Part shown: in pieces, positions 1 to 40,413 of the stretch
Numbering within the stretch: position 1 is the stretch's first letter
Layout: each line of letters starts with the position of its first letter
DNA from: Setoptus koraiensis
Taxonomy: Eukaryota > Animalia > Arthropoda
Assembly (NCBI GenBank): GCA_048013815.1
Contig: CM106586.1
Coordinates: forward strand, 7,998,001-8,062,000
Length of the DNA: 64,000 nt
Reading direction: 5' to 3'
Translations under genes and position numbers: made by a program
The notes under the pieces: generated by a model
What the model was told of the DNA's origin: nothing
The model's database searches: none
Seen by the model: the letters and a program-made list of their open reading frames with translations, nothing else

Positions 1-551
1 GACCGCCTTCAATGGTTTGCTTTACGCATTAATATGGTGCCGTCACACATCAACGAAGTCCACGTACCTCCTATTCGAATACGATCCTGGCACTGACACG
101 TAAGTATTTGATATCCATCATTGAGTTTGTTCGCAGCAAATTGTCAACATTGTATAACACTCATATATTTTCGCTTCGTTTTCAACCTGAACCAGTTGGT
201 CACTCTCGCCCATTAAAATTCCCGGCGATCTTTCAGATGAAATTCGTCTTTTAGCATTTTGAAACCAGCTCATCGAATGTGACGCATAGGCTAATTTATA
301 CTTGTGATGCACATTGGCAACGAATAACCATGGATATTTGATGAATGTCTGATTTACGGAATCCGATCGATTATTGAGAACATGAGAAAACTTTAAAACT
401 TGACAACAAACTGATATTTTTCTCTATGGTGCCATCTCTCATCAGAGTGGCCCCGATTCTTTATCAGCCAATCTGAACTATCTCGCTGTTGTGAATCGAC
501 GTTGATTGTGTTGTGACAATTCAGCTATGCCGCCATATAGAGGGTGGAAAC
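1..551 (+). repeat. Direct segmental duplicate of ~9879..10434 (Kelch 3' end, intron and 3' flank)
   Basis: Near-identical sequence by eye, e.g. 'cctggcactgacacgtaagtatttgatatccatcattgagtttgttcgcagc' and 'tcatcagagtggccccgatt' occur in both; offset about 9878. Confidence 0.95.
2..262 (+). CDS. 3' end of a Kelch-repeat gene (array copy 1, 5' part outside window); join(<2..99,196..262)
   Basis: Frame from nt 2 reads TAFNGLLYALIWCRHTSTKSTYLLFEYDPGTD, nearly identical to the end of ORF 8158..9981. A GTAAGT donor at 100 and CAG acceptor at 193-195 restore the Kelch Trp (YDPGTDT-WSLSPIKIPGDLSDEIRLLAF*). Confidence 0.85.
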
Positions 552-736
552 TTGGTTTTGATGTATTCTTCTCAGCTGCTAATATATCTTTGGGATAAGC
601 AATCCAATCTGATCATGCACATAAGCCCTTTAGAAAGTGTCAGAAAGTGTTAACTCCTTGAAGGTCAAAAGGACACAAAAGGAGACTAGCAAAACGGTTT
701 CAAGGCCAAAAGTATGACGTCATAGATACGTCACTA

Positions 737-928
737 ATTAAGCATCTGCATCTGTCTATCTATCATTTCTCAGGAATGTTCAGCACTCACTATAAATACG
801 AGCGAAATCTCCATATATTATGCACTTGTACGTTAGCCTTCATATAGTGAACATATACCTACATCGAAGTACGCATACATAGTCCAATCTGTACTCTACT
901 TTCTAACTCTCACAGTGGTTAAGGTGGT
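737..928 (+). repeat. ~190-bp TATA-containing segment, present in inverted orientation at 10432..10623
   Basis: The reverse complement of 10432-10623 matches 737-928 with few substitutions (attaagcatctgcatctgtctatctatcattt...ctaactctca(c/t)agtggtt(a/g)aggtggt). TATAAATA at 791-798. Confidence 0.9.
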
Positions 929-3042
929 CGGTTTCTGGTCTTTGTCTGGTTTCTACACGACAAACAGCATGTTAATGGTATATCAACTTTTTATTGACTT
1001 GCTATCATATAGAAGATGAGAAGAATACTTCGAAATCAAGTTTTCACTTTCTTTCTTCTTCAACTCATCTTCTACATCCGGATTCCATGGGGCTCAACAT
1101 GATGACTAATTTACTGCATTGGGGCACGTTTCATCACTCAATTGCGACATTGTTGATAATGCATTGATTGGCAACACTATTTGGCTGTGAAACAGTTGAT
1201 CAGTCTCAATTTTTCGGCCCATTTAACTCTATCACTGTATCATATTTCATCGATATAGCAGATGTTTTTTCCATGAATTGATGCTCGTGCAAGCGAATCT
1301 CTGATTTTGATCATCCATATCTGGTGAGATATCGTATACATTAGCAAGTCTAGATATGAAATGACAGGAAATGATGCAAAACATTTCTTATCGGATTCTG
1401 ATGGAGGACCGGGATGGCACAAACAGGCCAAATAAGAGACAAACGCCCCCTCTGATAGTCCATTGATTGTGATTTCCATCCCTCATCGAGCTGCAGGGAG
1501 AAGACACTTCGCGAGAATCGTTTGACCCGATGATAGTTGTCTCTCAATTTTGCACGATGCACCCATTGTTTCGAATGATGGAGAAATGTTTGTCTGTTTT
1601 CTCGTTTAACCCTTTTATTGCCCCATTGCAGACCAATTTATTACTAATAGATTTTTCGAGCGACAACAAAATCGAAAAAGACGGAATGCAAGAGAGTCTG
1701 TCTTGTATTCTATCATACACGATTCGTACCTGACACATTGTCGCAAAAAGAATTGCGTTTATCAGTGTGCCCGTGTCTTGGATGAGAGAAATCACAGAAA
1801 GAATCGCAATCAACACCACATACAACGGTGCACTGTGGAAGCTCGGTGCACCCTTTCGGTCAAGAGATGAACTTTTAACGAGCATCCATTAGTCGACGCT
1901 TTTAACGACCGTCCATTGGTTAACACTTTCAATTTGAAAGTTTCAAATGATCCATGTTGCTACGATGTAAATGGTATGGATCAGTGATACACTGTGATGC
2001 AGTTGCGCACACAATCTCAACCATTGCAAAACTGTTGCTGCTTTCAAATATCCTTCTAGAATATTCCACGCGATTGGGCAGCAATGAGGCATAGGCCATG
2101 AACAGTTTGCCTTTCTTGCTCCAACAAACTATCAATATCGTAGCTGACAGCGACTAATTACTGTCGGCTCCTAATTATTGTAAGCCTCTAATAGCATCGC
2201 GATCCATTGTACGAAATATGCCAGAGCCGTTTTTTATTGCTTTATTATTTCACGCACTGGTGTTAAATTTCAATCGGACTAGCCCTAGTGCCGTGATAGT
2301 GTCATAGTATAACGCGCTGTCCGACTGTCTTGATTTGGTGCCGCAATTATGTATCTCGAACCCGACGAAACTCAGCCAAACCACCTATCGTTGGGCCACA
2401 ACAGACAGGCTATCTGTTGCAGTGTATTTATTGAGTCGACGTATCGCCGACACAAACCAATCTCGTTCAATGTGGACGAGCAAAACGTTAATCTTTCGCT
2501 CTACTCGCTCTATTCGCTCTATGCAGTTTGTTCTGCTCGATCGCGGCAAAACATATTTGCACGATTGATTGCTCACGGGAATCAAGATGCTACATCTTGA
2601 TAAGTCGAGCTAACGCAACATCTTCCCAGCCTGGCAAGTATCAAATTGTGAATCATGTTTTACAGCCAAGGTAGATAGATTACATTGTGAGATAAGATTG
2701 TTTGTTCTCGTGTACGCGCATCGTGTATCAGCGCCAACTGGCGACTTGTTAGTAACGAGGCGCCAATAGGACAAACAAATCTGCTGGGCTATCATTTCGG
2801 TCACCGATGCGCTGCTAGCAGCAATACAACTGCCGTGCATACAACTCGACCATTTCCAGCACTCGGACAAGAAAAACGAAGAAAGTGAAATTTGATATTT
2901 TAAAACCCATTTAATATTATAAACCCCTAAATGTTATAAAACCCAACAGTATGACCGATATTTGCCCACATCTATCCACTGATTTTTCATCCAGCGCAAT
3001 CCGGCCAACAATCATCACTGCATTTGTCGCGACACTCAAGAT

Positions 3043-6000
3043 ATGCATGCCTCACATTCTAGAAATATGCACTGCGGATTGACCGTTGTTCAACCAAATC
3101 ATGGCTGCTCCAAATGGCCCCAAATCACGCAACTGCCAGTGCACAAACTTCAAATGCTCGACATAGACCAAGAACTGGACGCCATCAATGGCTTCACGTA
3201 TCATTACTTATCGTCCCATAATCAAACAAACTTTCTCAAAGAGATCGGCCACATTTCCATGTGCCGCGAAGAATTGAGACGAGACAACGAAACTCGCCGA
3301 CATCCCTTGATTGGTAACATCATAGAGCCCATTCTGCCATTGGTGCGCAATTTCAGACAATGGCAAACGACATCAACTGATCCGAGAGACACCTTCGAAA
3401 CGGTGCGATCAAAAATAGACAGGCCACCATGCGAGAATCATAGACACTTTCCGAGAATGTGGAGCTGTTATCGAGCTATAGCGGCCTTCATTATCGCACA
3501 GTGTCCAGAAGGATTGCAGCGCCTGACAGACAGGCAAGTGATTCAATCTACCAATAAAAGCGGCTCTCTGGGATGGCAAGAAAGGCTTGAGTTTGGCAAC
3601 AAATATGGCACTATGAGAGAATACATCGAAGACGTAGACCAGTGGAAATGTCGAGTGAATGAGCTCAAACAACATCTTTCGATGGGCGTCAGCAAGAATG
3701 GCATTTTCAGCATGACACCAAAGACCGAGGTGAAAGAATCGCAACGAGGCCGATTTATCTGGTCGTTGGGTGCCACCGGAAGAATCTACGAGAACATACT
3801 CTTTGGGAATTTTGACAATCTTCTGCGGGAGTTGCCGTATTGCGTTAGTGGAATCCCTCCGAATGATTTCGGGAATACAATCGACGATATTTTCACCCGC
3901 ATATCAAACCCCAGGGCAGTTTGCGACGACGTTTCGGGCTGGGACACCAGAGTCAGCTTCTCTATGTTGTGCATGGAGGCTGAATTTTTGCGATTGCTAA
4001 CTCACGACAAGCAGCACAAAGCGGAAATTCGAGCCATGTACAGACTGTATGCCTATCCTCTTGTTTGGATAGATAGACCGTCGTCATATAGCGACGATGG
4101 ACAAAATAGATATGACAAAGTTTTGTATCGTTTACAGGGCCAAGTGGCGTCTGGCCGTAGAGTGACCTACTCGATGAACACTGTCACCAATATCGTGGTC
4201 ACAATGTGTCGAGCTGCCTACAGCCAAGATGTTGACGAAAGTGACATGTATATTTGGACATTAAGTATGCTGATGAGCGGCCACTCGGAATTGTATGGCG
4301 GCAAAATATGTGGTGACGATTCGGTGATTATCATGAGCGAAGAAAATGCAAAAAAATATGCCAAGAAGGGGGCCAAGTTTATGAACGAAATTGGAATGCC
4401 CAGAAAGAATAAAAATCCCAACCAGCCGTCTGACATATTTGAGCGTATGCAGGACATAAACTTTTGCAGTCACATGTATTCACTGATTGAACTGCCCACG
4501 AGATCGAGAAGGGCAAACCTCTCGATGTGGGTCCCCAGAAGGAGCATAGGCGAGATATTGGCAAAGGCATCCATTATGAAAAATCACATTGAAGATAGAA
4601 TGATGCTGGTTTGGGCTAGGGCCCAGGGTCTCGGTCTTCTGGTCAAATATTTTCACATAGCAATCGTACGCTTGGTGGCACTGGCAATATTAAGTGCGAC
4701 ACCCAACGATCTCAGTTTTGATTGTTTGCCTGACAAGATGCGCAAAAGAAAGCCCTGGATTCGCGAGGGAGATGTCGTAGATATCATTAACAACTGTTTG
4801 TTTAGAGGCAAAATAGAAGGACATCGCATATCCAATATAAATGAGCTGGTCGCAATGAGAGTAATTCTCGGACGAGGAGAAACTTTTGACAGTCGGAGTG
4901 CCACTTATATCAATTGGCAAAGATCATTATTGGATATTGTTGAGGAATCAAGGCTACCCAACCAGCATTACGATGACTGGATTTCGGAGGCGATAATACA
5001 AGTGTCAGAACAAGAGCCGATTTACGCAATTTGTTGTCTCGCTATCGCGGAAGAGAGAGACGAAACCTTGGATGGTACAGTCATTGTCAATAAAAGGAGA
5101 ATTCCAGTCAGCAGGATCAAATTATCAGCTTGTTCGCCCATTTTCAAGTCGGCGTTCTCGGGAGGTCGCAAGGAGAAAGTATTCAAAGACGTGGATAGGG
5201 ACGCAATGGAGATGATCATAGATTTTGCCAACACAAGCCAACTGTCGATCACAAGTACAAATGTTGAGACTCTTCTCGCAACATCAACACGGCTACAAGT
5301 GCGCAGAATTCGCGCCGGATGTTTGGATTATCTGGAGCGTCATTTGGATGGCGATAATTGCGCAAAAATGCTCAATATAGCAGAGAAATTCTCCTGTGTG
5401 AGATTGTCAAAATTAACGAAAGAGTTCATAGCAGAGAATTTCGACCATGTTGCCATACGAGACGCTGATCTGCTGACTTTGAAGTATTCTCAATTGATGG
5501 ACATCATCAAATGCGGCAAGTTGAACTCACCAGCAACAACTGTCAGCAAGGCTGTCATGAGATGGTGCACTCATGACTATCTGAGATTTTGCAATGATCG
5601 TATCGAGCTGCTTCCTGATTTGTTGGAACACGTTCGCTGGTCTCAAATGGATTTGCATCAATTTACAAATATTTTCACTCATCCGTTGATCAAACGAAAC
5701 AAACGTTGTCGCGAATACATTCGTCGTGCCGCAATCAATATGTCGTCAAGCAATCAATCGGAGCTATCAATCAATATGATCACAATGGCACAACCTGGCA
5801 GGCGCCGTTGTCCTGCATCTTTGTATTTGTTTGCGACAGACACTAGTCGAGCGTATGTCAAAAGATTTAATGCCCACCTAAACGAATGGTTTGATTCAAT
5901 TGAACCGGAAACGCTTCACTCATCACGCTCATCATGCGAATGTGATCCGATCATTGTGCCAGCTCAAGATGTGATTTACATCATGGATCGTGCCATAAAC

Positions 6001-6813
6001 GATCGAACGGGCTCCATTGAGACTTATCATCCCGAACGAGGGACCGTCTATGAAGTGTCAGCTCTAAAACCTTACGACGGCTGGAGTTGTACTGCGGTCT
6101 TTCACCACAATTCGCTCTATTTCAACGATGCTCGAACAACGGATGGTATATACGAGAGTAGATTCCTCAAGTACTCGCTAGGTAAAAAGTATAAAAGATG
6201 GACAAGATGTACGCCCATGTCCTCAATGCAACATAGATGCGAATTGGTCAGTCTCAACAATTATATTTACTCCATAGGAGGCTACAGCTCCTCACCTCCA
6301 AATTTCACGAGAACTGTCGAACGCTATGATTCCACCACTGATCAATGGCGTTCGATAGCACCCATGGGCAAATTGAAAATATATGTTAAAGCAGAGGCTC
6401 TTCATGGATGCATTTACGTGATTGGGGAGGATTGTGCTCCAATGGATGAACCGTTTAGCTTCAGTGGAGAGAAATACAATCCACAAACTGACACTTGGAC
6501 ATGCATTTCGTCACCACCGATGATGGAATGTGGAGATATAATACTCAGTTTGAATGCATTTGACGGTTTGCTCTACGCACTAATTCGGACTGATGATTTA
6601 GATGACGATGATGGGGAGAAGCACAAATTATTAGCATACAACCCCGACACTGATACGTAAGTTTATTTTATCAATAGTTGAGTTTATTTTCGTCATTTTG
6701 GCAATATCTTCTAACACTAATACGTCCCTAATTTTTTCACCTGAATCAGATGGACAGTTTCGCGGATCACTCTCCCCGACGGAATTAATTTTCATTGTTT
6801 GCTAGCATTCTGA
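3043..6813 (+). CDS. Chimeric protein: flavi-like (jingmenvirus-like) NS5 RdRp domain fused to BTB-BACK-Kelch; join(3043..6656,6750..6813)
   Basis: One open frame. NS5 features: pre-A TSTDPRDTFETVRSKIDRPP, motif G-like KSGSLGW, F MTPKTEVK..RGRFIW, A CDDVSGWDTRVS (3922-), B QVASGRRVTYSMNT (4141-), C ICGDDSVI (GDD 4312-4320), E INFCSHMY, thumb PWIREGDVVDIINNCL, C-terminal WQRSLLDIVEESR. Then BTB (~5070-5370: RIKLSACSPIFKSAFSG...LQVRRIRAGCLDYL), BACK (NCAKMLNIAEKF...AVMRWCTHD) and Kelch repeats (YIYSIGG...VERYDSTTDQW; GEKYNPQTDTW). A GT..AG intron at 6657-6749 restores YNPDTDT-WTVSRITLPDGINFHCLLAF*. The 5' end is uncertain. Confidence 0.9.
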
Positions 6814-7018
6814 GGGCTGCCCTTGATCCAGAGTGATTAGTTTCGCGGATAATTTACAACTTTTAAAGAGATTCGAGTGCACAAATCGAGAAGTAAGACT
6901 AAAAACGAAGAGATTCCATGAATGTCTTGTACTAATGATGGTGTGGCAATTAAACATCTTGAGCTGCAATAGATTAGCTTGTGCGTTAAATTCAGTTTTT
7001 CCATCTTGTGTAACCGGG

Positions 7019-7518
7019 NNNNNNNNNNNNNNNNNNNNNNNNNNNNNNNNNNNNNNNNNNNNNNNNNNNNNNNNNNNNNNNNNNNNNNNNNNNNNNNNNN
7101 NNNNNNNNNNNNNNNNNNNNNNNNNNNNNNNNNNNNNNNNNNNNNNNNNNNNNNNNNNNNNNNNNNNNNNNNNNNNNNNNNNNNNNNNNNNNNNNNNNNN
7201 NNNNNNNNNNNNNNNNNNNNNNNNNNNNNNNNNNNNNNNNNNNNNNNNNNNNNNNNNNNNNNNNNNNNNNNNNNNNNNNNNNNNNNNNNNNNNNNNNNNN
7301 NNNNNNNNNNNNNNNNNNNNNNNNNNNNNNNNNNNNNNNNNNNNNNNNNNNNNNNNNNNNNNNNNNNNNNNNNNNNNNNNNNNNNNNNNNNNNNNNNNNN
7401 NNNNNNNNNNNNNNNNNNNNNNNNNNNNNNNNNNNNNNNNNNNNNNNNNNNNNNNNNNNNNNNNNNNNNNNNNNNNNNNNNNNNNNNNNNNNNNNNNNNN
7501 NNNNNNNNNNNNNNNNNN
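7019..7518. other. Assembly gap (500 N)
   Basis: Run of exactly 500 N, probably a placeholder size. ORFs in the track spanning it are artefacts. Confidence 1.
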
Positions 7519-8157
7519 ATTATTATTTGTTTTTTTTTGTCTATTTTTCTCACCTAATATCACCACCTTCCGACCTTAATAAACTCGCCACAGTCTTACC
7601 TGTGCTCATGTATCAATAATCCAGCAAAACAGTCGCTTACTGTTACTCAACTACTTTTGCATTACTCGAATGATTGGATATATCTGTTCAATGTACTGTA
7701 ATTGTTAAAACATGTAGCCCAAAAACATCGAAGCTTGTCTCGTGTCTAACTAACACACTCTATTCTGTCGTATCGATGTGGTGGATGTTTTCTCATCTCA
7801 AGATCGTGAACACAATCTTTTAATCTTTGACTATTCTATTTGGTCGATCATTATCTGTTGTGGTAGGTTTAGCCACAAAGAAGGGCTAAATTACATTATG
7901 TGACAAATTCAAAACAACGGCATTGTAGGTGGCTTGCAAAGTCAGATAAGATATAATCATTTTCATCGCTCTTCTCGCTGAGCACAGCACTACACTGAAT
8001 CTAAACATAACTAGGAAGCTTTTTAGTTGCATCGTCCTTTAATATTGGACAATCCACTTATTAATATATCAAATTATACACTAATTTGTCCATGTGTGTA
8101 CCATTTTTTTGACCGATTCATACCGGCATCTATGCTGTTGTTGTAACATTTTTCAAT

Positions 8158-10140
8158 ATGGACACTCCGGAAATCGAATACATATTTGAGACAGCCGTCC
8201 AATGGTGTGACATTATTTTCTCTCACCGCAACGGTGATAGCTGTCAAGGCGTGCTGGCAAATAGGGGTTCCAGCAAGAAAGAAGCAGCAATGGCCCTTGG
8301 TCTGGCCAAAGCACGAGCACTCGATATGCTCGTCAAGTATATGCACATACCGATAATACGCTCGATGGGGCTGTCAATTTTGAGTTGTACATCAAACAAT
8401 ATCGGCCCTGATAATCCACCCGAGGAGATGGAGAAAAAGAACCCATGGATTTTGAAACGAGATATGATAGGCACCGTTCGAAATTGTTTCTTTGGAGACA
8501 AAACACTCGAACAGCTTACGCCGTGCCTGATTGATCTGGCCGCAACAAACATACTGTTCGAACAAGATACAACTTCCGACGACCAAATGCCCATTTCTAT
8601 CGATGAGCAGAAATCTCTTCAGAATCTTGTCAAGCACTGGAGTGAGCCACCTAGCATTGAGCATAATTTGGATGTATCTAATTGCATAAGTCTACACATA
8701 TTGGCGCAAAAGTTTTCATCTGAGGATTTGTCGAAATCTACGAGAGAGTTTATTGTGGAGAATTTCGACGATGTTGCCAAACAAGATGCATTTGTGATAT
8801 TAGAGTCAGGTCAATTGATTGAAATTATTAAATGTGACAATCTGAAATCTTCTGCAGCAACTGTGTACGAGGCTATCGTAAAATGGTGCAATCATGATTC
8901 TGGTATCGATCGTCGGAAGCTCCTTGCCGATATACTGCAACATGTTGATTTCTCGCAAATGGAGCCTGATTATCTCGTCGACATTTCTAACGATCCGTTG
9001 ATTGACGATGACAAACGATGTCGTAAGTACATTAGACACGCTATGATTCGATTGCTTCCCAGCAAACAAACTACATCGAGCAGCTCTACTTCTCGAGAAA
9101 ACATGGATAAAGAACAGTCCTCAGAAAGCTGCAGAGGGATTTCATTGTATTTGGTTACGGGAGAGTCCAGTAGAGAAAATTTTCTCAAGCAATACGATGC
9201 CGCTATAAATCATTGGATAGATATAAAATATATAATATCCAATATATCAACCAATAATAATCCACATATAAGTATGGTAAGTGACGCATTGTTCATCTGC
9301 GATTGGTTGTGGAAACCCAGAGAAATCTATCATCCTAAGATATTCTACCGACATACATTGCCACCCCCCAGATGTCACACTCACCTGATGTATACTAGTG
9401 GTGCAGTCGCTCACCTTGGTTCGCTGTACTTGAACATCACTGATCGGAACCAGAAGGAATATAAATGCGAATTTCTAAAATATTCTCTCGAGGATGAGAA
9501 GTGGATCGCCCGCAGCACCATGCAAACTCAACTTTGCGAACAGCAATTGGTCAGCTTGAACAATTACATTTATGCAATTGGGGGAAGTAGCTCTCTGGCA
9601 CCTACAAACACTGTCATGTGCTATGATCCTTCAACTGATCAATGGCAAGCGCGGGCACGAATGCTCAAAGCGAAAGAGAAATTAAAAGTTTCAGCATTTC
9701 AAGGACTTATTTATGCAGTAGGACTTGCAATAGATTGTGATACCGTTGAGCACTATCGCTATAGCGGAGAAAAGTACGATCCACACATCGACACTTGGAC
9801 GCGCATAGCATCTCTGGATTGCGAATTACTCTCAAAAGAGCTAACAGAAAGTGTTAAAAGTGTGTATATTGTCAGTTTGACCGGCTTCAATGGTTTGCTT
9901 TACGCATTAATAAGGTGCGATCACACAGAAACGGGGCACACGTTCCTCCCATTCGAATACGATCCTGGCACTGACACGTAAGTATTTGATATCCATCATT
10001 GAGTTTGTTCGCAGCAAATTGTCAACATTGTGTAACACTCATACATTTCCGCTTCATTTTCAACCTGAACCAGTTGGTCACTCTCGCCCATTAAAATTCC
10101 CGGCGGTCTTTCAGCTGAAAGTCGTTTTTGGGCAGTTTGA
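8158..10140 (+). CDS. Paralogue: NS5 thumb/C-terminal fragment fused to BACK-Kelch, BTB largely deleted; join(8158..9977,10074..10140)
   Basis: LVKYMHIPIIRSMGLSILSCTSNN...PWILKRDMIGTVRNCFF aligns without gaps to LVKYFHIAIVRLVALAILSATPND...PWIREGDVVDIINNCLF of the 3043 gene (25/55 identical). It then joins directly to IEHNLDVSNCISLHILAQKFS (BACK start) and Kelch repeats (YIYAIGG, GEKYDPHIDTW). An intron at 9978-10073 gives YDPGTDT-WSLSPIKIPGGLSAESRFWAV*. Confidence 0.88.
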
Positions 10141-10431
10141 AACCAGCTCATCTGATGTGACGCATAGACCAATTTATACTTGTAGGCAATGCACATTGGC
10201 AACGAATAACCATGGATATTTGATGAATGTCTGATTTACGGAATCCGATCGATTATTGAGAACATGAGAAAACTTTAAAACTTGACAGCAAACTGATATT
10301 TTTCTCTATGGTGCCATCTCTCATCAGAGTGGCCCCGATTTTTTCTGAGCCAATCTGAACTATCTCGCTGTTGTGAACCGACGTTGATTGTGTTGTGACA
10401 ATTCAGCTATGCCGCCGTATAGAGAGTGAAA

Positions 10432-10623
10432 ACCACCTCAACCACTATGAGAGTTAGAGAGTAAAGTTGAGATTGGACTATGTATGCGTGCTACGATGTA
10501 GGTATATGTTTGCTATATGAAGGCTAACGCACAAGTGCATAATATATGGAGATTTCGCTCGTATTTATAGTGAGTGCTGAACATTCCTGAAAAATGATAG
10601 ATAGACAGATGCAGATGCTTAAT
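10432..10623 (-). promoter_or_regulatory. Inverted copy of the 737..928 segment; TATA box on minus strand facing the Kelch 3' end
   Basis: TATTTATA at 10562-10569 (TATAAATA on minus). Repeat identity is seen directly; promoter function is inference. Confidence 0.35.
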
Positions 10624-11314
10624 CTTGTGTAACCGGGCTGAACTTTTGCAATTTGTAACATAATTCTTCGATTGAATTTGATTCTTCTAATTTTATTACA
10701 GTATTCATTGAGAGTAGTATCGACGATTGCCGTGATCGGTCTCACGTCTCATTGGTAGAGAGAACAGAATCGGTCGTTAAAACTACTCCGATTCGGTTTT
10801 GATGCGAGCCAAACGTACGTTTTTCGGTTTCTTCCAGCCGAAATTAGTGATCAGGGGAGGAAAGGAGGCCCCCACGGTCTAAGAAAGACAGCGAGGTGTG
10901 GGATATCGTCCCCCTCAAAAGTTGATAAAAACATACCCGATTTCTAGTTTTTAAAACAGAAAACAGATTCGTATCTCCTTAGTAATCCGATACCCTCAAT
11001 TTAAAAACTGATACGGTGATCTTGAAGGATCATTATTCACGGCGTTGCTGCCAGAGCGATAGAAGATTCACAGGTTAGATTGCCCTAAAGGCTGATGTGG
11101 CATCAGTTTCGATAGGAAGCAGCGTATTAAAGTAGCGCTCAGCCTGAGAGAGTGCTAGTTGCTGACTTGAGATCATTCAATCACTAATGAAAGTACCAGA
11201 ATGTTGATCAGAAAAGAAAAGACTCGATCCCGAATCGATTCGACCCTGGAGAGAGACCGTAGGTATTGTTAGATAGAAAAACAGGAATATTGAGAGATTA
11301 GAAGATCCGAAAAA

Positions 11315-12463
11315 ATGGCCCCTGCACCCATGCGAACAATTTTGTATTGGGCGATATGTGTGTTGTTGGCGATCTTTTTCGTATCCTATCATGAACAGTT
11401 GGTCTCAAGTGCTGACCAGCAAATCGAGTTAACAGACAAGGCGGAATGGGGTGACTCAAACGAACGATATAACGAACGAGCAAAAAATAAGTCACCGTTT
11501 TCGGGCGATAACAGAAGAAGAGAAGCGAGGCGTTCGAATAGGCTGCCGAAAAGACAATTGAAAAGCCTAAAACTGCGCTGGGCCGAGGCTAACGTCAACG
11601 ATCTTAATCCTGTCTCGTGTGGTGCTACATATGATATGGTCACCAATCATGTTTCGGATACTTCTCCTCAATTAAGAATGATTGGTGCCAATGGAATCGA
11701 TGTAAAACGACATCCATGGGTGGTAACTATAAATATGAGAATGCTCAATGAATCTTGGGCTCGCTACCGGTGTAGTGGCGTTATAATTCACGAGGAATTT
11801 GTATTAACGACTCGAGTGTGCGCCAATAGTATTGACATAAGACCAGGCAGCAATTTCGAAGTTAGAATAGTGGCTGGCGCAAACGATCCATTTAAAGGAC
11901 CATTCGATGATGCACAAATTGGAAATATTTCAGCACAACAGAGCCACCCAGATGCTGATTTGGCAGTAGTGCAAATGGGAAAACCATGGATATGGTCGGA
12001 TACTGTCCGACCTATTTGCGTTGCATTCCCTCAGTATGATACCGCCGTTTTTCACAATGTTACTGCCAAAGACATGGCTTTTATCGCTAGTTGGGGAACC
12101 GATAGCTGGAGCGAAGATGAGCAGTTCACTCTTCCACATCAACTACAAATTTCTCGCGTCACTGTTCGGGGTGCCAGTGTTTGCGCGAGAAAAGCAGAAG
12201 AGTTGAATTCACGGTTTGTGTCCGATTTGATGTATTGTTCATTTTCACCCTGTCGTTCGAAGCGGAAAACTTTCCCTTGCGGAGGTGATCGGGGTGCACC
12301 ACTCCTGTATCAAAACAAAAATAGAGGCAATGTTTGGGAAGTTCAAGGTATATTGAGTCATTCTGGCGGCAAGCATTGCGCTAACGACTTTATCGTCTAT
12401 GAGAAGCCGAGTGAATACTACAAAGATTGGCTAGAAGCATACGTCCATCAAGACCCTTACTAG
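11315..12463 (+). CDS. Secreted or membrane-anchored trypsin-family (S1) serine protease homologue, predicted non-catalytic
   Basis: N-terminal hydrophobic segment; HPWVV, CSGVIIHEEFVLTTRVC (TAAHC site, His absent), DADLAVV (Asp present), VRPICV, CGGDRGAPL (GDSGGP site, Ser replaced by Arg), W-V-GILS. Single exon. Confidence 0.85.
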   Translation: MAPAPMRTILYWAICVLLAIFFVSYHEQLVSSADQQIELTDKAEWGDSNERYNERAKNKSPFSGDNRRREARRSNRLPKRQLKSLKLRWAEANVNDLNPVSCGATYDMVTNHVSDTSPQLRMIGANGIDVKRHPWVVTINMRMLNESWARYRCSGVIIHEEFVLTTRVCANSIDIRPGSNFEVRIVAGANDPFKGPFDDAQIGNISAQQSHPDADLAVVQMGKPWIWSDTVRPICVAFPQYDTAVFHNVTAKDMAFIASWGTDSWSEDEQFTLPHQLQISRVTVRGASVCARKAEELNSRFVSDLMYCSFSPCRSKRKTFPCGGDRGAPLLYQNKNRGNVWEVQGILSHSGGKHCANDFIVYEKPSEYYKDWLEAYVHQDPY

Positions 12464-14044: not shown

Positions 14045-16381
14045 GAAATCGCAGTACAAATTCGTATATTCGCTATGCGCGCGACCGACCACCACAACTG
14101 ACACTTGTGGGTATCGCTTCCCAGGTACCCAACGATTCCGTTGGCACCCGTCGACGGGCCCATCCGCGATGTTGCCGGCAAATCGCGGCAAATCTCGACA
14201 ATCGCGGCAGTCGCGGCAGTTTCGACAGCCCAATCGGCGGCTCGCCGGAGTGACGATGCGACGGCGCCAACGGGTTGCCGCGGACACAACTTCCGGCCGC
14301 GAGAGTCACAATAAATCTACGCGTAATAATAAACGCTCGACGGTTTGTGGCTGGCGATTGTTGCAGCCAGCAAGCGAACGAGCGAAACGAAGCAAATGAG
14401 CGAAACGAAGCGAACGAGCGAAATGAGGCGAATGGATGCAACAATGGACAAACTGCTGGCCAGCGCGATATTAATGGCACCATTGATCACTGTCGACTGA
14501 CGGACAGAGACAAATTCGCGGCCATTAGTCAGCGCCCGTTGGAATTGCTTGTCACTGGTTGTTTGTTTGTTGTTGGCAGTCAGTTCAAGTGGCAACCAGT
14601 GGGACTGTCGGCCGGCGACGGCAGCGCCAAACTCATTAGTTTGGGCACAACAAGCGGCCGACAACGAACAACAATGATACAAATTGATTGATTTCGTTTT
14701 CGTTGGATCGCAATTTGAATTTGCTCAATTGCGGCAAATTATTTGCATTAGTTGTGCGCCACATTTGCCGCCACTTTCACTCGCAAGTTGTCAGTGCGTT
14801 CGTTGGTTGTTGTTGTCGGTCCGTCGGTTGTTGTTGTCGGTTCGCTTGTTGTTGCTGTCGGCTCGCTCGCAGTCGGCCGGCCGGCCGGTGAGCTGGCGAG
14901 CGCAAGGTGAGCTGATTGCCGTCCACCTACACCCAATAAAACACATCAGGTGATCGGGCGATCAGGTGAGACAGACGCACACTCGCGCCTTACCGTTATG
15001 ATTTGTGGTTGTGCGTTCGCTCGCAGCGGCAACAACAACAACAACAGCAACAGCAACAGCGGCAACAACAACGACAGCAACTGGCGAGTCGCGCTCACCT
15101 GTTGCACTCACGCCGTTCGCCTGCCATTGTTTGTAATGAGCAGCATTATCACCACCACCGACTACTGCACTATTGCTCGCAACAACAATGGTCTCGATTG
15201 TTTGTCCGTCCCCCTCTCTCGCTGGCTGGCCGATCATCTGTTTGCCGACGTTTACGAGTTGGTGAGTGTGTGTGTGTGCGTGTGTGTGTTGGCAACATCA
15301 AGGTGTCTTACCATTTTAAGAAGAAGCTGCTGCCCGAGTTGGTGTTGTCTCGCTGGCATTGTTTCATTGTTGATACCTACACCTGTGCGAGTAACGGTTG
15401 TTGGGCACGAGCTGGCTGTTAGTGGCCGTTTGTTGTGATTTGGCGCCACTTTGTATCGTCGTCATCAGCAGCAGTTGACTGTTGTTGTTGTTGTCGTTGT
15501 TGTTTGCAGCGATTCGTTCATTGTAGCCACCATCAGATCTGGCTAATCGCTGATATTTGTGGCCAGCGCAGTTATTGGGCGAGTTCAATGTCAACGCGCA
15601 CGCCAACCGCATTCGAAATACATGACTTTTGACACGGGTCGCTTCTTCGCCCGAGCGCTTCTCGCCGTCCGACCGACCAACACAACAACCAATACAACAA
15701 CCAGCCAACCGCCAGCCGAACACAACAGCCAGACACAACAGCCAGACGCAACAGCCAGCAAACAAACGAGCCAGCAGACGAGCGAATCGTCGGCAAATAT
15801 CATCGCAAATTGAAATTGAAACGATTCCCGAAATGATTTCTCGTTCGTGTCATCATTACACGCGCGCATTATTTGCACCGTATTATTGGCGGCCATTGTG
15901 CAATTGTATCACTTGTTGCACGGCCACTTGTTGAGTGCAGTCGCGTGCAGTGTATCATCGTTTGTTATTGCATCATCTCTTAGTTTATCACCCGTTAGTT
16001 AATTATTTGTTAGTCTATCATTTGTTATCATTTGTTAGTTAATCATCTGTTAGTTTATTATTTGTTAGTTTATCATTTGTTAAACAGTCGGCTCGCCATT
16101 GGCCATTGTTAGCTCGCGCGCGTCACATCACATGCATCACAAGTTCACAAGTGGCCACAAGTCGACACAAAGCGCCATTAATCATAGCTCGATATGGGTC
16201 AGTGTTGGCCAGTGTGATGACGCAATTACCACAGACACAAACACAACGCAATGCAGCCATGGAACCGAGTGACAGACCCAAACCAGCATCAGCAGCCAAC
16301 AAGTTACACAGTGCGTGCACCCCAGCGACAAAAGTAAAAAACAGCAAACCGTTACAATTACCGATCACACCAGCCAAGCTA

Positions 16382-19300
16382 ATGAGCGGCCACACAAATC
16401 GGGACACAATCAGTGCACCACTAATTATCTTTTATATATCGCTCACATGTTTTGCAACCATTTCCGGGGCCCTCACAACTGGGCCGCCCAACAACCAGAC
16501 CCTAGCGGCCGCCCAAGCAACCAACCAATCAAGATCGCAACAAGCGACAGCCAAACTAGACGAACTCTATGATCTGCAACAACAATCAGTGATAAACAGG
16601 CGCATTGGCGCCCCCGAGGATCTGACCGACTCGTCGTCGCTGCAAGCGGAAGAGTCGCGTCTCGATGCGCCGGGCGCGGTCGTCGCTGTGGAGGCGCCCG
16701 GCCATTTGCAGCAGCAGCAGCAGCCGCCGATCACCTCGCAGCAACCGACTACTTCACAGCGACCAGCCAACACCAACGCAAACCAATTCCAAGAACAGTT
16801 CAGCAACGGAGCGGGCAACTCGTACTACTCGCTGGCCACTGACGGAACCAGCCGCTACCAGTTCGGCTTCAACACCGTGGGCCCGTCCGAGTCCGCGCGC
16901 CACACATCGGGTCCCGCCGAGCCCAATCTGATGCGCGAAGAGACCAAGCTGCCCGACGGAACTGTCGTGGGCCGGTACGGTTACACGGACCCGTTCAATG
17001 TGTTCCGGATCGTGCACTATGTGGCCGACGCCAGCGGCTATCACGCCAGCGAGGAGGTAGACACAAACGGCTCCATGCAACAGTTGGTGCAGCAACAGCA
17101 AAACATCGACAATTATCCGTTGAACGGAGAGGGCGCCATCAAGTTTCAGTTGAACAGGCAGCTGCTGAAGGTGCTGCAAACGCTGCAACAACAACAGCGA
17201 CAACGCCGACAACTGTGGGCCTCGCCACAGCGGTCGAGGCCCACCGGCCCGGGCGAACGGGCGACGCGAGCCGCCGGCAGCGGCGCAGCGGATCCGCTGA
17301 TGGGCAGCGACAGTCTGGCGCTGTCGTCGTCGTCGCCGGCCAGCGGCGACTCTCTCAACGACCACGAGAGAGAGATGGTGGCCGGAAGTGTGCACTATGC
17401 GCTCAGAATCAATCACGGCAACTCGGCCGCAAGACAGCCCGCAGCGGCGCCGGCGGCGCAACCCGACGCCACGGTCCTGTCCCATTTGCGGCACATATTC
17501 AGGCAGGCGAGCAGAAAGCCGGCGCACCAGGCGGCGCCCCAGCAACTTGTGGTGCCCCAGCAACTTGCGGCGCCCCAGCAGCAGGTGGCGCCAGTGCATC
17601 AGGGGGGCTCACAAGCGCAAACGACCATCGGCGGCCAGCACTTCGGGCTCGATCTGGAGGCGCGCCGCTCGAGACTGCCCAAGCCGATAGTGACGCCCAC
17701 CAGTTACTCGATCGGCATAGATCACCAGCAGCCGCAGGTGCCGGCGGCCGGAAGCGGCGGCGGCCCGCAGCTCGGGCAGCCCGCGAGCGGCGGCTACGTG
17801 GCCCAGTTCAGCTACCCGTACCGCGGATTCCAGCAGGCTCAGCAAGCAAGCGCCAACTCTCACCATCAGCAGCAGCAGCAGCCGTCGTCTTATCCTAGTC
17901 TCGCCGTCATACAGCAACAGTTGCGACAAATGCTCAAAAACTATGCCGGCAACAACACCGGCCAAGCGCCCGCAAAGCCCCAGTCGCCCAACGATTTGTC
18001 GCCGGCCCCCAGCAGCCACCGATGGTCGCAATCGGCCCAATGGTCCAACCTCAATGGACAGCGCTCCGTGGCGCCCCTGGTGACGGGCTCGCCGACCTGG
18101 TCCATACTGAACGACAACTACAACGGACAGCACCAACTGGTCATCGATCACAACGACAGAGACGGACACCGGCAGGCCTATCTGCAGCAACGGTTGCAGG
18201 CCAACAACAGCAGCGCCTCAGCAGATCGCGAATCGGCCGTTCTCGCAGAATTGGCCCAGCTGAAACTGAACCAGCAGTGGGCCCTCGATCAGCAGCGACA
18301 CCAGCAGCGACAGGCGTACAACAGCCACTGGCCGGCCACTTCCGGTGCCGTCTCTAACCGACAGCTAGGCGGCGCCACCGATCTGCTCAAAAGCGCCTCA
18401 ACTGGCTCGAGCAGCGTCAGCGGCAACGTCGGCGCGCCATCGACACAACAGCAGCACGGTCACACAAGCACTCCGCTCGTGTTACATAATAGCACGGTTA
18501 CAGCCAGCGGCAACCATCTCAATTATCTCGACAGGTATGTCGAGTTTGGCATGCGCAAGGCGCTCGCGGCCGAGCCCGCCTTCGTCATTGGCCTGCCCGA
18601 GACAGGCGCGGTCCCGGCCTTCAATGGGGCGGCCCAGCGGACAGCGGCCGCGCCACTGGACGGTGCCGATCAACAGGTTGACATAACGAAAAATTACGCC
18701 GCCACATTCACGCTGAACAATTTCAGCCCGCCGCTGTATCATCCGCGCGTGCACGAAACAAGGGCGGCCTCTGTGCCCGCCGAGCCGCTTTCGGCCGGCT
18801 CTGTGTCGTCGGTCGGCACCACTAGCGACGGCACCGCGCACTACTCGAGCGTCATAACTCACTCGATCGGGCACGCGCAGCAACCGCGCTACGATTATCC
18901 GTTGTGGGCCGGCCCGCTGAATGCGCGCCCGCAGCAGTACGGCTCCGGTTCGCCGGGCGCAAGTGCGGACGAGTTGCAATCGAGCGCCACCAGCGCCAAG
19001 CGGCAATCGGTGGCGACAAGTGGTGGCGAGACCGCAAACAAAAGAGAGCCACATTCGGGCGCGTATGGAACTCGCAATCAGCAGGCGAACGGCGACAGAG
19101 CGCGATCGGCGATAATTAACGCCGACACGGGATCCGCTCTGGCGGACGATCTGTATCTGGACGAGAGCGAGCAGATCTTGTCCACCGTCAACGACACCAG
19201 CGCTGGCGTGGCCGCCAGCGGCAACAGCAGGGCTCGCAATCCGGACAGGTCAAAGAAACTGTCAAACATATTCAAGGCTCGCTCGTCGGCCGGCTCTTCC

Positions 19301-19423
19301 GACCTGGAGGCGGTCGTGCGATCGTCGGACGGTGCCCACTTGGCCAAGATCCGCCGCCCTGTGCCCATCAACGCCAAAAAGCCCGCCAAACAGCAACAAC
19401 CGCAACAACAACAGCAACAACAA

Positions 19424-19458
<35 letters not shown>

Positions 19459-22321
19459 ACAACAACAGCCGAGAACAATCAATTATGCAACGAGCAGCCT
19501 GGCGTCACCGGCAACGACAGCAACACCGATTGTCATTTCGGCAACAACAGCTGCTACCGCTTCTGTTGCTGTTGCAACCGCCGTACCGACGACAGGTGCA
19601 TCTTCTGCGCTGGTCAGCGCAGCCACCGTTCGAGCCGACGGCGGCAGCGCAACAACCGACCACCAGGTGACCGCAACAACGCAAGCGGGCCAGCAGCAAC
19701 AGCAGCAACAACAGCAACAACAGCAACGACAGCAACAGCAACAACAGCAGCAACAACAGCAGCAACAACAGCAACAACGACAGAGACAACAGCAGCAAAA
19801 CAGCACGTCGGATGAACCTGCCGCAACGCTAATTAAATCAGCAGATATGGCGACTGCCAGAGACGCTGGCAGCGAGCACAAAAAGAGTGGCCACTCCGGT
19901 CAAGCGTCTCTGGCCAGCAAAAGCGCCAATCGGACAATGACAATGCCAAACAAACAATCGCTCACCAACGTCATTGACCTGGCCAGCATTTACAATGTGT
20001 CGGCCGGGGCAGCGCTCACAAACAACTCCATGAGTCTGTCCACAAATCAATTAGCGAAATTAGTTAGTCTCGTGGTGGACAAATTAGACAAGCCGGCCGG
20101 ATTGTTTCTGAGAGCGGACAAGAGCCCTAACTCGATACTGGTCGACAATACACTGGCCACCAGCGCCAACAATAACAACAATAACAACAATAACGCTCAC
20201 CTGTCCAAGCCTAACGCCACCACCAGCGCCACCAGCAGTGCCGATGTCACCACAAACGCTAGTGTTGGGCCCGAGTGGCCAGCGTCAGGCGATTCGAGTG
20301 CCAACAACAACGACAACAAGCTGCCTGTTGTCAACAATAATCTTATAACGGGCCAATTGCAAAACATTAACTCTGTAATGGAGCAAGGTGATTTCCTGTC
20401 GAAGATTAGCCTAGATTTGGACAATTTTGACAGCGTTCGTCAGACGACCAACGAAAGTTTTGTTGGTTTGAGTCAGCACAATGTCGATCTGGACACTCAA
20501 ATGACTCTGATGAATGCCACTGCAGCCGAGAGTAGAATCGAGAAAACTTTCGTCAGTCCAACATCGTCGATGCAAACGATCGAGAAGCAAAGTAAACCAA
20601 CCACCAGCGGCCCCCAAGTGGCACCATCAGTGTTGCTTGCAACGACAACAATTGCACCTGTTACACCGAAAGCAACAACAATCACAACGCCCATATCAAC
20701 AACCGTATCGGCGAGCACGACAACATCAGCACCGACAACAGCAATTAAACCAATAACAACAACAACGACATCGGCACCGGTGACGCAAACAGCACCCGCG
20801 TCTGTATCATCGACGACCGCTCAGATACCAACGACAGCCAGACCAACACTACCAATAACAACAACGACAACCAGACCAACACTGCCAGTAACAACGACGG
20901 CAGCCAGACAAACGCCGACAACAACAACAACAGCAGCCAGACTAACGCCGACAACAACAACAGCAACAGCCAGACCGGCACCAACAATGACAACAACAAC
21001 GACAACGACAACACCCATACCAGTGCCCTTAACAAGCAGCAACCTCACGAGGCCATCGTTGGCTTTCGGAGCGGAAAGCCCACAACGATTCGGAGACAGA
21101 GCAAGTGCGGCCAACAAGGGCGATGGCATCTCCTTATTTAACAAAGAAACAAACAGTGAGACGAAGAACAGGAAATTCAATCGAGTTGTAATAAAACGGG
21201 GCCAGCGCATAGTGGCCAAATTTGACGCAAATCAATCAAATTTGTTCGACGCCACCAAGAGGCCCCTGGCCATCAACGAGGCCCAAAATAACGGCTCAAC
21301 AGTCACAACAAACTCACGAGATCCACAAACTACAAACAGTGATCCTTCATTCAGGCCAAAACACTGGAGACGCACCGTCAAACGAGTGCCCATGCTGGCC
21401 CGACTGAACCAGTCTGACAGTAGCCAACAGGCCCCAATTTTGTCGGCCATGATTAGCACGATGGTGGCGTCGGACGAACGAAACACCAACAGCTCTCTGG
21501 TGTCGGCGAACTCGACAACTATAGCGGTGACCACAACAACTACAACGACTACGACGACGACAACAACAAATCCAGCGCCAATCAAACGAACGGAGCAAAC
21601 TGACCCATTGCCCTTAAATTCTTACATAACATCATCGACATCGACATCTTCGCCATTGCCTAGTGATTCAAAAGGCAGCAACGACAGCAGCAATGTTAGT
21701 GTCGCTGACATCAAAATGGCCAGCAACAGTACCGAAGATGATAATTTGCATAAACACAACTCGGCCAACTTGAGGGCCCAGCCGGCAGATGGCAGCATCG
21801 CCGGCAGGTCGCTTAGATCGGCCTCCTATCTGGACACTTTTCTACACGCTCAAGACGACGATCTGATGAGCTCAGAGTCAATTAGTTCACAGACGACACA
21901 ACTAAACAATTTTGACAGTAGTGCCACCAGTGCCAGAAGAAGGCCAACACTGACAACTTCCGGTCAGCTTGGCCAAACGTCAGCGCTGTCGTTGGTGGAT
22001 ATAAAACAGAAACGCAAAAAGCGAAAGCCCAAACTGTTGTGCATTGAGGTGGCCCCAGACGACAGTGCCGAGACAATGGTGGACGAAGATCAACCACAGT
22101 CGCAGCCACAGCCAAAAACACAACCACAACCACAATCGCAACAACAGCAGCAACAACAGCAGCAACATCACAATCGCCAGCAGCAGAATCAAGCCAACAG
22201 ACAGGGCCTGCAAATGACAGGCAAGCAGCAGCAGCCAGCAGCTTCGATGGCAAGACCATCGTCGCCAGTGGTCAGTTTCGGCGACGACAAAAACTTTGGA
22301 AAACGGTTGTCAATGCGATGA
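16382..22321 (+). CDS. Giant cuticular protein with one Rebers-Riddiford chitin-binding (chitin_bind_4) domain and long Q/N/T-rich extensions
   Basis: Single open frame 16106-22321. Signal-like LIIFYISLTCFATISG after Met 16382 (earlier in-frame Mets at 16217 and 16259). RR motif YQFGF...REETKLPDGTVVGRYGYTDPFNVFRIVHYVADASGY at ~16855-17045. PIVTPTSYSIG motif, polyQ tracts, mucin-like Thr-rich region ~20640-21030. Confidence 0.8.
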
Positions 22322-28322: not shown

Positions 28323-29727
28323 GTTTCACTAGCAGTGTAGCTGTGCCCATTGTCGAACAACACACAAAAGTTCTATACAACGTTGTCCGGCAACGTGGCC
28401 AGCGTAGAACTTTCACTTTGGTTACATGTTGGCTACATGTGCAACATGGCGACTGTATTGTCGAACTTTGTCGCCTGTGTGACACAGCCTGTGTCCGTGT
28501 AACTCGCTCAGCACGAGTGTTCAACCTGCACACAGCGTAACTTACACTGTGTAAGTGCGTGTCGAAACACGTTACTAACGTGACGCTAGCGAACTATGAC
28601 AACCTGGCAGCCATTGTCGGCGGCCATGTTGGCAGCGAACGCGCGACGCGTTGTCCAAGCGGCTGCAACGGCCGCCATCGCTCGCCGCTGTTATCAATAG
28701 AATCAATGATCAAATCGTGTCTGGTCGTGAGTCGTGTTTGGTCGTCAGGGGGGCAAGCGCGGGGCAACACACTGTAGTGAGCCGCTATCTGATACAGCGA
28801 CCATCAGTGTTATTATAGGGCGGGTCGAAGGTTCGGCGAGCGACAGCGAAAGTATTGTGTCGCTGATTCTGCTGCTGTCTTGAAGTTGGCGCACGAAAGT
28901 GGCAGTCAGTGCGGCAGTTAGTGCAATGGTCAGTGATGCCAGCAGCAGCCGCTGAACCTGCCGCGCGCTTGCCAGTTACTGGCAGCCAGTACGTTGCAGT
29001 GTGAAACGAATCGCGCAACAAGCAACTAACAACCAAATCGCCAACCAATGGAAATGAGCAGCCATGCAACAAGCGCGCGAAACGAATCGCCAGCGCGCAC
29101 GCACATAGTTCGACAGAGCCAAACATATCGGTGTCGCTAATTGAATGCGCTGTTGCGCCCACCACACTGCCCCCAGCCCACTGGCTGTTCAGTGCGAGTG
29201 AGCTTGAGTTAAAATTCTCAAAAGTGATCCCCAGCTATGGCGGCCAACAAATCGAACAACAGAAAGGAAGTCAAACACAAAGGCGGGGGGAGGAGATGGG
29301 CGAGCTGCGCGGCTTGTTCGCTTTCTTCAACGCCCGTGCATCAACCGTTCGAGCCGGATCGCCGACACTTACATAATAGCGCCGCTCTGACCAAACGGAC
29401 ACCAGTTCGTCGTTTGCTCCAGATTGATCAACATATCAAGTTGAAGAGGAAGTTGAACAAAATTTAATTTTTATTTTATCATTATCAGCACATAATCGTC
29501 GTAACAACAGTGTGAGTACAAGTAATCAACAGGTTGACAAGTTCAAGCACCAAGTCGCTCAAGTGACAGCGTCCAATCCGTGCGATATTCTCACACAAAA
29601 TCACAATTCTCACCCACTTTCTCTCCCGAATCGATTCCCACGGAATTCCCAACCAAAAATCTAAATAATAATAACAATAATAATTGATTGATTGTTCGCC
29701 CACTCATTCCAACACAGTCCACACAAA

Positions 29728-39225: not shown

Positions 39226-40413
39226 TTTTCTTTCAATTGTTTTGATATTGGAGCACAATAATATTTATCCATTAACAACACATAACAAATCCGTCTCTTT
39301 GTTGATCAATTGTTAATTGTTTTCATCACACAACTGGACGATTTGATGGATACCACGTTATGCTGATGTTCACAATTTAAATGCATCACTTGCCATGTCC
39401 GTCACACATTGACTTTGCCCAGCCAATTTATTATTGGCGTTTTACAAAACTGATGTTACTAACGCTAAAAGTCAACTTTGGTGTTTCATCATCACCATCA
39501 TGTATTATATCATTATTATCATTATCATTATTATTATTACTATTATTATAATTAAATTGTTGTAATTATTACCACCATATATCACGTAGCTTCGTAAGCA
39601 TCATTAATAATCATAGGATAATCAACTACAACACAATACACAAGCAACAATAATAAACTTAATGTAAGCGACTGAATGTAGCTGTTTCTTTGTTTGTTGA
39701 ATGTTCAATTTAACAAGAGTAAGTTTCGATTTCCGATGCCAGATCGTTTCGCAAGATTACCTTGCTGGGAGCGCTGTAACTAGTGTAAAGCAATTGCATT
39801 CCCACATTGATTTGATCTGGTGCAGTATGTGGAATAAAGCCGATGATTATCATCACTGTATTGCAGTAGTGCACTTATGCCTATTCTTTGCCATTTCGTC
39901 GTGTGTCTAATCTAGATTATATTGTTGTTAGTAGAGCATATTGGATGAGAACCTATTCCATGCTTCATGTGATGGTTGCAGATAATCGTCATAACAATGG
40001 CACAAACATATCAACAAGTATATCAACATATAATATGATGATATGTGAGTATCATTTATTTAGTTTGAAATAGTCGTTTCAGCAAAGTATCGTTCATTTC
40101 CACCTTATATCCCATTTGACCGTGGCGCTATCTCGTTTGAGCATCTAACATTTACGTCAATAATTAGACAGACAAATGGATTCCGCGCTGTTATTGATCC
40201 GACATCCATTCGAAAAGGATTGCAGCATTCAGATGATGTGAGACACTCGCGACTGGTCCAAAGTCGAAACAACCACAAACAAACACCAAATAAAGCAACC
40301 ACGCTCGACAACAACCCAATTTCTCCAACCTCAATTTGCCATCTACAATCTGGCATATATCAGCACACCGTCTAGGTCACTTTCGCACCTCAATACAACA
40401 GCCACCAAACAAG

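Follow-up and report, generated by a model that had tools for sequence, protein, structure and literature searches.

A jingmenvirus-like polymerase domain fused in frame to a BTB-BACK-Kelch protein in Setoptus koraiensis: a possible antiviral sensor-adaptor

How did an RNA-virus polymerase come to stand in frame in front of a host BTB-BACK-Kelch protein, and what might it do there? This question is raised by a 64,000-nucleotide stretch of the Setoptus koraiensis genome (NCBI GenBank assembly GCA_048013815.1, contig CM106586.1, positions 7,998,001 to 8,062,000 of the forward strand), hereafter called the window. An earlier note, made from the sequence alone, had described its left part as a tandem array of at least three Kelch paralogues, possibly an expanding antiviral family. 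The three Kelch 3' ends on the + strand are indeed present, with stop codons ending at 262, 6813, and 10140, and all three copies have a GT-AG intron of 93-96 nt at the identical codon position (100-195, 6657-6749, and 9978-10073). The second copy is of particular interest. Copy 2 carries a complete jingmenvirus NSP1-like RNA-dependent RNA polymerase (RdRp) domain, without the methyltransferase (MTase), in frame with BTB, BACK, and Kelch domains. We tentatively regard this intact gene as an antiviral sensor-adaptor. Its parts are the following.

3043..6813, + strand: copy 2 gene (RdRp-BTB-BACK-Kelch), exons 3043-6656 and 6750-6813; 1225 aa from the first ATG
3094..4986, + strand: jingmenvirus NSP1-like RdRp domain of copy 2, from the linker (~3094) to the viral C-terminus (~4986)
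3721 and 3748 (F), 3925 (A), 4150 (B), 4312 (C), 4462 (E), + strand: RdRp motifs of copy 2, all present
5053..5343, + strand: BTB domain of copy 2, alpha3-beta4 loop 5 residues shorter
5359..5670, + strand: BACK domain of copy 2 (Pfam)
5821..6810, + strand: Kelch propeller of copy 2, approximate boundaries

A single open frame (2983-6657) contains Flavi_NS5 fingers/palm and thumb, BTB, BACK, and Kelch, all exceeding their Pfam cut-offs. The BTB domain has the conserved Glu and the 3-box helices, and the shortened alpha3-beta4 loop is the Cul3-binding loop of such adaptors. We place the start codon at 3043; an additional exon further upstream is possible, and this start is therefore not certain. 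The region upstream of the gene (2917-2994) contains TATA-like stretches and an out-of-frame ATG at 2951 that opens 43 codons, and a pyrimidine tract before the gene ends in AG at 2994.

The fusion was compared with short-read contigs from four runs (X1, X2, X4, and X6), none of which spans the gap of 500 N within the window. One 4022-nt contig of X1 covers 2934-6955 with 1 difference to the window, and X1, X4, and X6 (three of the four runs) each have one contig that crosses the polymerase-BTB junction of copy 2, which refutes an assembly chimera. Since contig boundaries coincide between X1 and X2, these two runs may derive from the same material, and X6 and X2 come from one sample. X4, with 49 differences in 1338 nt of the flanking gene, represents a separate population. 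Therefore, at least two independent samples carry the fusion, even though X1, X2, and X6 may overlap.

The best PDB matches of the viral part of copy 2 are jingmenvirus polymerases (E 9e-77 to 5e-73), compared to 9e-24 or weaker for other flaviviruses. It is 42-45% identical to its nearest relatives, and in a tree of 41 rows it falls into a 100/99 clade with the proteins P0001 and P0002, the latter belonging to the cluster of Plasmopara viticola lesion-associated jingmen-like virus 1. No methyltransferase remnant was found upstream of copies 2 and 3 (best tblastn E 0.057), and a suspected remnant at 2951-3082 was rejected. A search of 1-11300 against Rfam gave no match. That the domain is an endogenous viral element (EVE) of non-retroviral origin is indicated by unspliced contigs crossing both the junction and the intron, and by a mite-like host gene within the window: the best named match of the GTPBP2 gene is from Aceria tosichella (55%), and no other named chelicerate exceeds 46%. 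By this one gene, the host likely belongs to the eriophyoid mites, at some distance from Aceria. Three other NSP1-like proteins without methyltransferase (P0003, P0004, and P0005) are encoded on contigs of 8-18 kb, keep the polymerase motifs, and have no Kelch. They are likely further conserved polymerase EVEs of other hosts. Their N-termini are non-viral, they retain 0.88-0.92 of the conserved columns introduced below, and P0003, P0005, and P0178 form a 100/100 clade. The fork in the tree (92/93) is compatible with one as well as with several integrations behind copy 2 and P0003-P0005.

Comparable fusions were not detected elsewhere. A BTB-Kelch profile run against 110 polymerase relatives (7 initial and 103 further ones) matched 0/110 at E < 0.05, while both controls scored. 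The Kelch half is only 22-31% identical to named KLHL matches, and no close relative of it was present among the best 120 of 174 matches. Scans of metagenome and viral contigs returned a 3.3-kb jingmen-like contig, which came up twice, and a single distant locus, but no fused relative. An exact-match look-up of nine window proteins found none of them in the protein collection, and the Atlas returned only generic KLHL clusters for copy 3. A polymerase-BTB-Kelch fusion was also not found in the literature searched, in which subscription journals are thinly covered.

As the earlier note had proposed, the viral-domain content differs between the copies: copy 2 holds the whole polymerase domain, copy 3 only a remnant of the thumb.

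8158..10140, + strand: copy 3 gene, NS5 motif-E/thumb remnant, BACK, and Kelch without BTB; 628 aa; exons 8158-9977 and 10074-10140
8158..8655, + strand: thumb-subdomain remnant of copy 3 with in-frame internal deletions; Pfam PF20483, E 8e-4 (below its cut-off)
8094..9097, + strand: stretch absent from the Kelch-only variant, which joins 8093 to 9098; an in-frame ATG is left at 9103

The viral part of copy 3 starts at about motif E and is 34% identical to copy 2 over 123 aa. Its predicted model is weak, with a predicted local distance difference test score (pLDDT) of 68, and flavivirus RdRps form the top Foldseek rows, none of them at E 1e-3. The predicted BACK-Kelch model (pLDDT 82) matches KLHL propellers (best Foldseek row KLHL20, E 6.5e-16). 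Copy 2 has BTB, BACK, and the Kelch propeller, whereas copy 3 lacks the BTB domain. The Kelch-only variant, recognized by its 8093-9098 joint, was seen in contigs of all four runs.

The two fused copies allow an estimate of age. Between copies 2 and 3, the synonymous divergence (dS) is 0.9 in the thumb, 1.19 in BACK, and 1.91 in Kelch, and 9/18, 14/25, and 27/52 four-fold sites, respectively, are identical. Because thumb, BACK, and Kelch follow each other in the same order in both copies, with these dS values and similar four-fold-site identity, one fusion preceded the duplication of copies 2 and 3. This duplication is old and does not represent a recent expansion.

In the absence of selection, a frame of 1.9 kb would stay open through even 0.2 changes per site with a probability of ~1e-8. 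In the coding region of copy 2, the one indel listed is an in-frame indel of 6 nt, and indels of 1 and 10 nt are located upstream. The copy 2 polymerase retains 66/75 virus-conserved columns (0.88), compared to 0.80-0.99 in leave-one-out tests of the 15 NSP1-like references on which these columns were defined, some of which are perhaps not free viruses. A neutral null model excluding stop codons keeps ~0.41 of the conserved columns at 0.45 changes per site. The copy 2 polymerase thus appears to have an intact frame under purifying selection, as gauged indirectly through the dS of its paralogue and within one species. For the thumb fragment of copy 3, the ratio of nonsynonymous to synonymous divergence (dN/dS) is ~0.57.

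Do the three Kelch copies form an array? The near-identity of copies 1 and 3 noticed earlier holds, with 92.8% over 555 nt between 1-551 and 9879-10433. So do the strong divergence of copy 2 (38% identity to copy 3 over 466 aa of BACK-Kelch) and the presence of the gap. The features that bear on their arrangement are listed here.

2..262, + strand: Kelch 3' end of copy 1, exon 2-99, intron 100-195, last exon 196-262
263..551, + strand: 3' flank common to copies 1 and 3, 13 substitutions in 289 nt
552..736, no strand: segment X, missing from the copy-3 path (joint 549/551 to 928/926)
737..928, no strand: segment Y, with an inverted copy at 10432-10623 (93.8%)
7003..7018, + strand: 16 nt identical to 10622-10637, from which the two paths continue into a common downstream sequence
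7019..7518, no strand: 500-N scaffold gap, which likely joins two alternative haplotypes
10432..10623, - strand: segment Y again, inverted; scar left by a deletion-inversion-deletion through which haplotype B likely lost copy 2

Depth was expressed relative to the neighboring trypsin-like gene, taken as single-copy (for X6, relative to 14181-14522); contig depth is a weak measure of copy number, and coverage in X4 is uneven. The summed depth of copy-1-type and copy-3-type contigs is 1.10, 1.03, 0.97, and 0.49 at 9823 (X1, X2, X4, and X6) and 1.06 (X1), 1.13 (X2), and 0.77 (X4) at 9920, where X6 has no cover. This corresponds to about one times the flank and not to the about two times expected of three loci in tandem. 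Moreover, in both X4 and X6 the copy-2 contig runs on for 14 nt beyond 7018 and the copy-3 contig stops at 10651; judged by the overlap geometry, the two paths end on one 30-mer. Because the summed depth is that of a single locus and both paths converge downstream, copies 1 and 3 probably represent alleles at one locus, whose two haplotypes were placed one behind the other across the gap. In the simplest reading, haplotype A consists of copy 1, X, Y, copy 2, and the downstream sequence, and haplotype B of copy 3, inverted Y, and the downstream sequence, having likely lost copy 2 through deletion-inversion-deletion. The earlier note had itself allowed that copy 1 and the region 9879-10434 might be one locus; this is probably the case, and the window would then show two loci instead of three.

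A true tandem array, with copies 1, 2, and 3 on one chromosome after a recent duplication, is unlikely. It would agree with the scaffold order, and also with haplotype sums above 1 in all three runs, an X4 Kelch-only joint at 1.53x flank, and extra depth of 1.3-1.7x at 9579, but the last value includes a more distant paralogue. Besides the single-locus depth at 9823 and 9920 and the common 30-mer, the non-coding divergence of copies 1 and 3 speaks against it (4.4%, close to the 1-3.7% by which alleles of the flanking gene differ). The allelic reading does, however, have to accommodate haplotype sums of 1.17-1.37x flank and a sum of thumb and Kelch-only forms of 2.03 in X4. Relative to the flank, copy 2 has a depth of 0.53, 0.57, and 0.69 and the inversion joint of 0.64, 0.80, and 0.59 in X1, X4, and X6; haplotypes without copy 2 are common (about half). 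The depths of the Kelch-only joint and of copy 1 are 0.48/0.56 in X1, 0.40/0.38 in X2, and 1.53/0.77 in X4. Since the joint tracks copy 1 in X1 and X2, although not in X4, copy 1 is probably Kelch-only.

Further paralogues, which the earlier note had expected, do exist elsewhere: an 86%-identical Kelch contig of X4 (32 differences in 228 nt) occurs at flank depth, and contig ends are loose at 71 and 5648. X4 also holds two versions of the inversion joint at 542/549-911/928 (depth 15 and 12), so that the rearranged haplotype has itself diversified. Within 9199-9438, depth falls to ~0.7 of the flank at 82% likeness, and the contig exactly matching copy 3 is at ~0.27-0.30 in X1 and X2; some alleles may be too divergent for matching in Kelch blades 2-3. 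The stretch 954-1077 is a high-copy element (depth at 1027 ~11,400 in X1 and 8,000 in X6), of which 1010-1047 matches 544-581 in inverted orientation (84%), next to the inversion breakpoint.

A signal of diversifying selection, as anticipated for the Kelch propeller, was obtained from copies 1 and 3. They differ by 18 nonsynonymous changes versus 1 synonymous change in 54 codons (pN 0.148, pS 0.025, non-coding 17/385), an excess with a Fisher p of 3e-4 against the adjacent non-coding DNA; counted by codon, 14/14 changed codons alter the residue (p ~0.018). In the predicted model, with the last exon placed by its repeat pattern, the changes fall mainly into the distal BC hairpin and the DA loops. 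These are the loops that shape the substrate pocket of KLHL propellers, according to the available text of PMC3597819. Among 24 coding variants from a list with 495 further rows, in which alleles and paralogues are mixed, 3/7 are nonsynonymous in the thumb region and 14/17 in the Kelch region.

What could such a fusion do? RdRp domains of jingmenviruses bind the 5' stem-loop with a dissociation constant of 0.16 uM and initiate de novo (PMC13681716, available part), and a construct without methyltransferase is active and yields more short intermediates (PMC11014250, available part). Because such RdRps bind the 5' stem-loop and work without the methyltransferase, a captured domain that retains its active site is a plausible sensor of cognate viral RNA. 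Tentatively, the polymerase domain would compete with the viral enzyme by binding to the promoter stem-loop or the ends of related viral RNA, and could possibly make short uncapped products. BTB-BACK would then recruit Cul3, leading to ubiquitination of the replicase or of whatever the Kelch face holds, and viral change would chase the surface formed by the Kelch loops. We infer that the polymerase, tethered to the BTB-BACK-Kelch scaffold, would place a Cul3 adaptor on the replicase, and that the role of the copy 2 fusion would be antiviral. A bolder version, in which a still-active flavi-like polymerase is the sensor of a ubiquitin-ligase adaptor, representing a new class of restriction factor that reads viral RNA promoters, and whole, thumb-only, and Kelch-only forms are kept as a balanced polymorphism, appears doubtful at present.

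Several observations weigh against an antiviral sensor-adaptor. The loop of the copy 2 BTB domain that should clamp Cul3 is 5 residues shorter, and copy 3 cannot be an ordinary Cul3-RING ligase (CRL3) adaptor because it has no BTB. The selection signal concerns copies 1 and 3 and not copy 2; it comes from only 54 codons with clustered multi-base changes, and its p value is 0.045 against synonymous sites alone. In addition, an unfused jingmenvirus polymerase EVE of ticks did not noticeably limit virus in tick cells, as stated in the available part of PMC9501327.

One alternative, which we consider rather unlikely, is that the host uses the polymerase as a working enzyme, producing double-stranded RNA from viral, transposon, or host templates to feed RNA interference, with the BTB-Kelch part only dimerizing or localizing it. 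Such an enzyme would explain why all catalytic motifs were retained over a long time, and it fits the shortened Cul3 loop and the methyltransferase-less P0003-P0005, which keep the motifs without any Kelch. But copy 3 kept a non-catalytic thumb in frame at a dN/dS of ~0.57, pointing to a binding role, and the Kelch loops diversify.

The earlier note had compared the family to integrated decoys. Variable viral content and the diversifying signal agree with that idea, but a pure decoy leaves the kept catalytic residues unexplained. As a pure protein decoy, the viral domain would bait the helicase-protease or polymerase and poison the replicase, its catalytic residues being kept for the fold only. 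The thumb remnant of copy 3, the loss of the capping domain, and the presence/absence variation would suit this; against it, the conserved fraction of motif columns (0.88) is one also seen in working viral enzymes (0.80-0.99), and we judge a pure decoy improbable.

It is even harder to see the polymerase as a passenger, that is, as a viral insertion that gave the Kelch gene a start and is now being shed stepwise (whole, thumb, none), so that only Kelch matters and its fast evolution is aimed at plant, symbiont, or germline targets. The graded series of losses and the half of the haplotypes without copy 2 look like such shedding. However, an open frame alone predicts ~41% of the conserved columns and not 88%, which largely refutes this explanation for copy 2, and a much younger replacement of the polymerase is argued against by the 9/18 four-fold sites (few as they are) identical to the copy-3 thumb. 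Overall, we regard a passenger as quite improbable. Finally, a virus that captured a host Kelch gene before the chimera integrated, suggested by the absence of introns over the first 3.6 kb of copy 2, is hardly credible given the spliceosomal intron conserved in all three copies and the 0/110 polymerase relatives with BTB or Kelch, as is an assembly chimera given the bridged junction in three of the four runs.

The remainder of the window contains host genes. A trypsin-like open reading frame (ORF) is located at 11315-12463 (Pfam). Its usual catalytic His and Ser motifs appear replaced, and we take it to be a probably inactive protease homologue. Long, intron-poor host ORFs are found at 16043-22321, 29692-31170, 40294-41775, 42075-43115, and 43906-45867, with GTPBP2 among them; two are presumably cuticle-protein-like, one porphobilinogen-synthase-like, and one SAC3/LENG8-like.

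Fusions of a virus-recognizing or virus-derived module to a host ubiquitin or immune scaffold, with allelic diversity, are represented by TRIMCyp, CGIN1/NYNRIN, and the integrated decoys of plant NLR proteins. To our knowledge, none of these contains an RNA-virus polymerase or a Kelch adaptor. With the NSP1 RdRp of jingmenviruses (PDB 8wim/8wil and 8wu2/8wu3; Plasmopara viticola lesion-associated jingmen-like virus 1), copy 2 shares the complete RdRp domain, including motifs A, B, C, E, and F. Unlike NSP1, it is located in host DNA, lacks the methyltransferase, and continues from the natural viral C-terminus into BTB-BACK-Kelch. The segment-1 EVEs of tick jingmenviruses in Ixodes (PMC9501327, PMC13155725) are likewise polymerase genes that became part of a chelicerate genome and vary in populations. 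They are >76% identical to living virus at the nucleotide level, and the available text describes no fusion to host domains, whereas copy 2 is an old fusion that has been duplicated and has a spliced 3' end. The element eEBLL-1 of Eptesicus bats is another viral RdRp whose intact frame and motifs are under selection and whose function is unknown; it is a stand-alone bornavirus L with demonstrated expression and, as far as the available text of PMC4865735 goes, without fusion to an E3 adaptor. Copy 2 has the domain order, propeller fold, and variable BC/DA loops of the BTB-BACK-Kelch (KLHL/KBTBD) adaptors of Cul3, again going by the accessible part of PMC3597819, and differs from them in the shortened Cul3 loop, the viral domain in front, and the loss of BTB in copy 3. 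The planthopper NlToEVE14 (PMC10636211) and the yeast STORM array (PMC13756089), which evolves asymmetrically in tandem, are also host-domesticated RNA-virus genes. Both are of toti-like origin, and no polymerase-E3 fusion is described in the parts of these two reports that were available.

If non-retroviral EVEs have a role at all, it is for most of them assumed to be that of templates for small RNAs. Co-option of an RNA-virus polymerase at the protein level has been documented in few cases, none of them with a known function. In copy 2, the host domain joined to such a polymerase hints at what it may do, and the deletion variants that occur naturally can serve as built-in controls. If the proposed role is true, arthropod antiviral immunity can use viral enzymes as sensors. 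The fusion also records an old association of jingmen-like viruses with plant-feeding mites, some of which are vectors of crop viruses.

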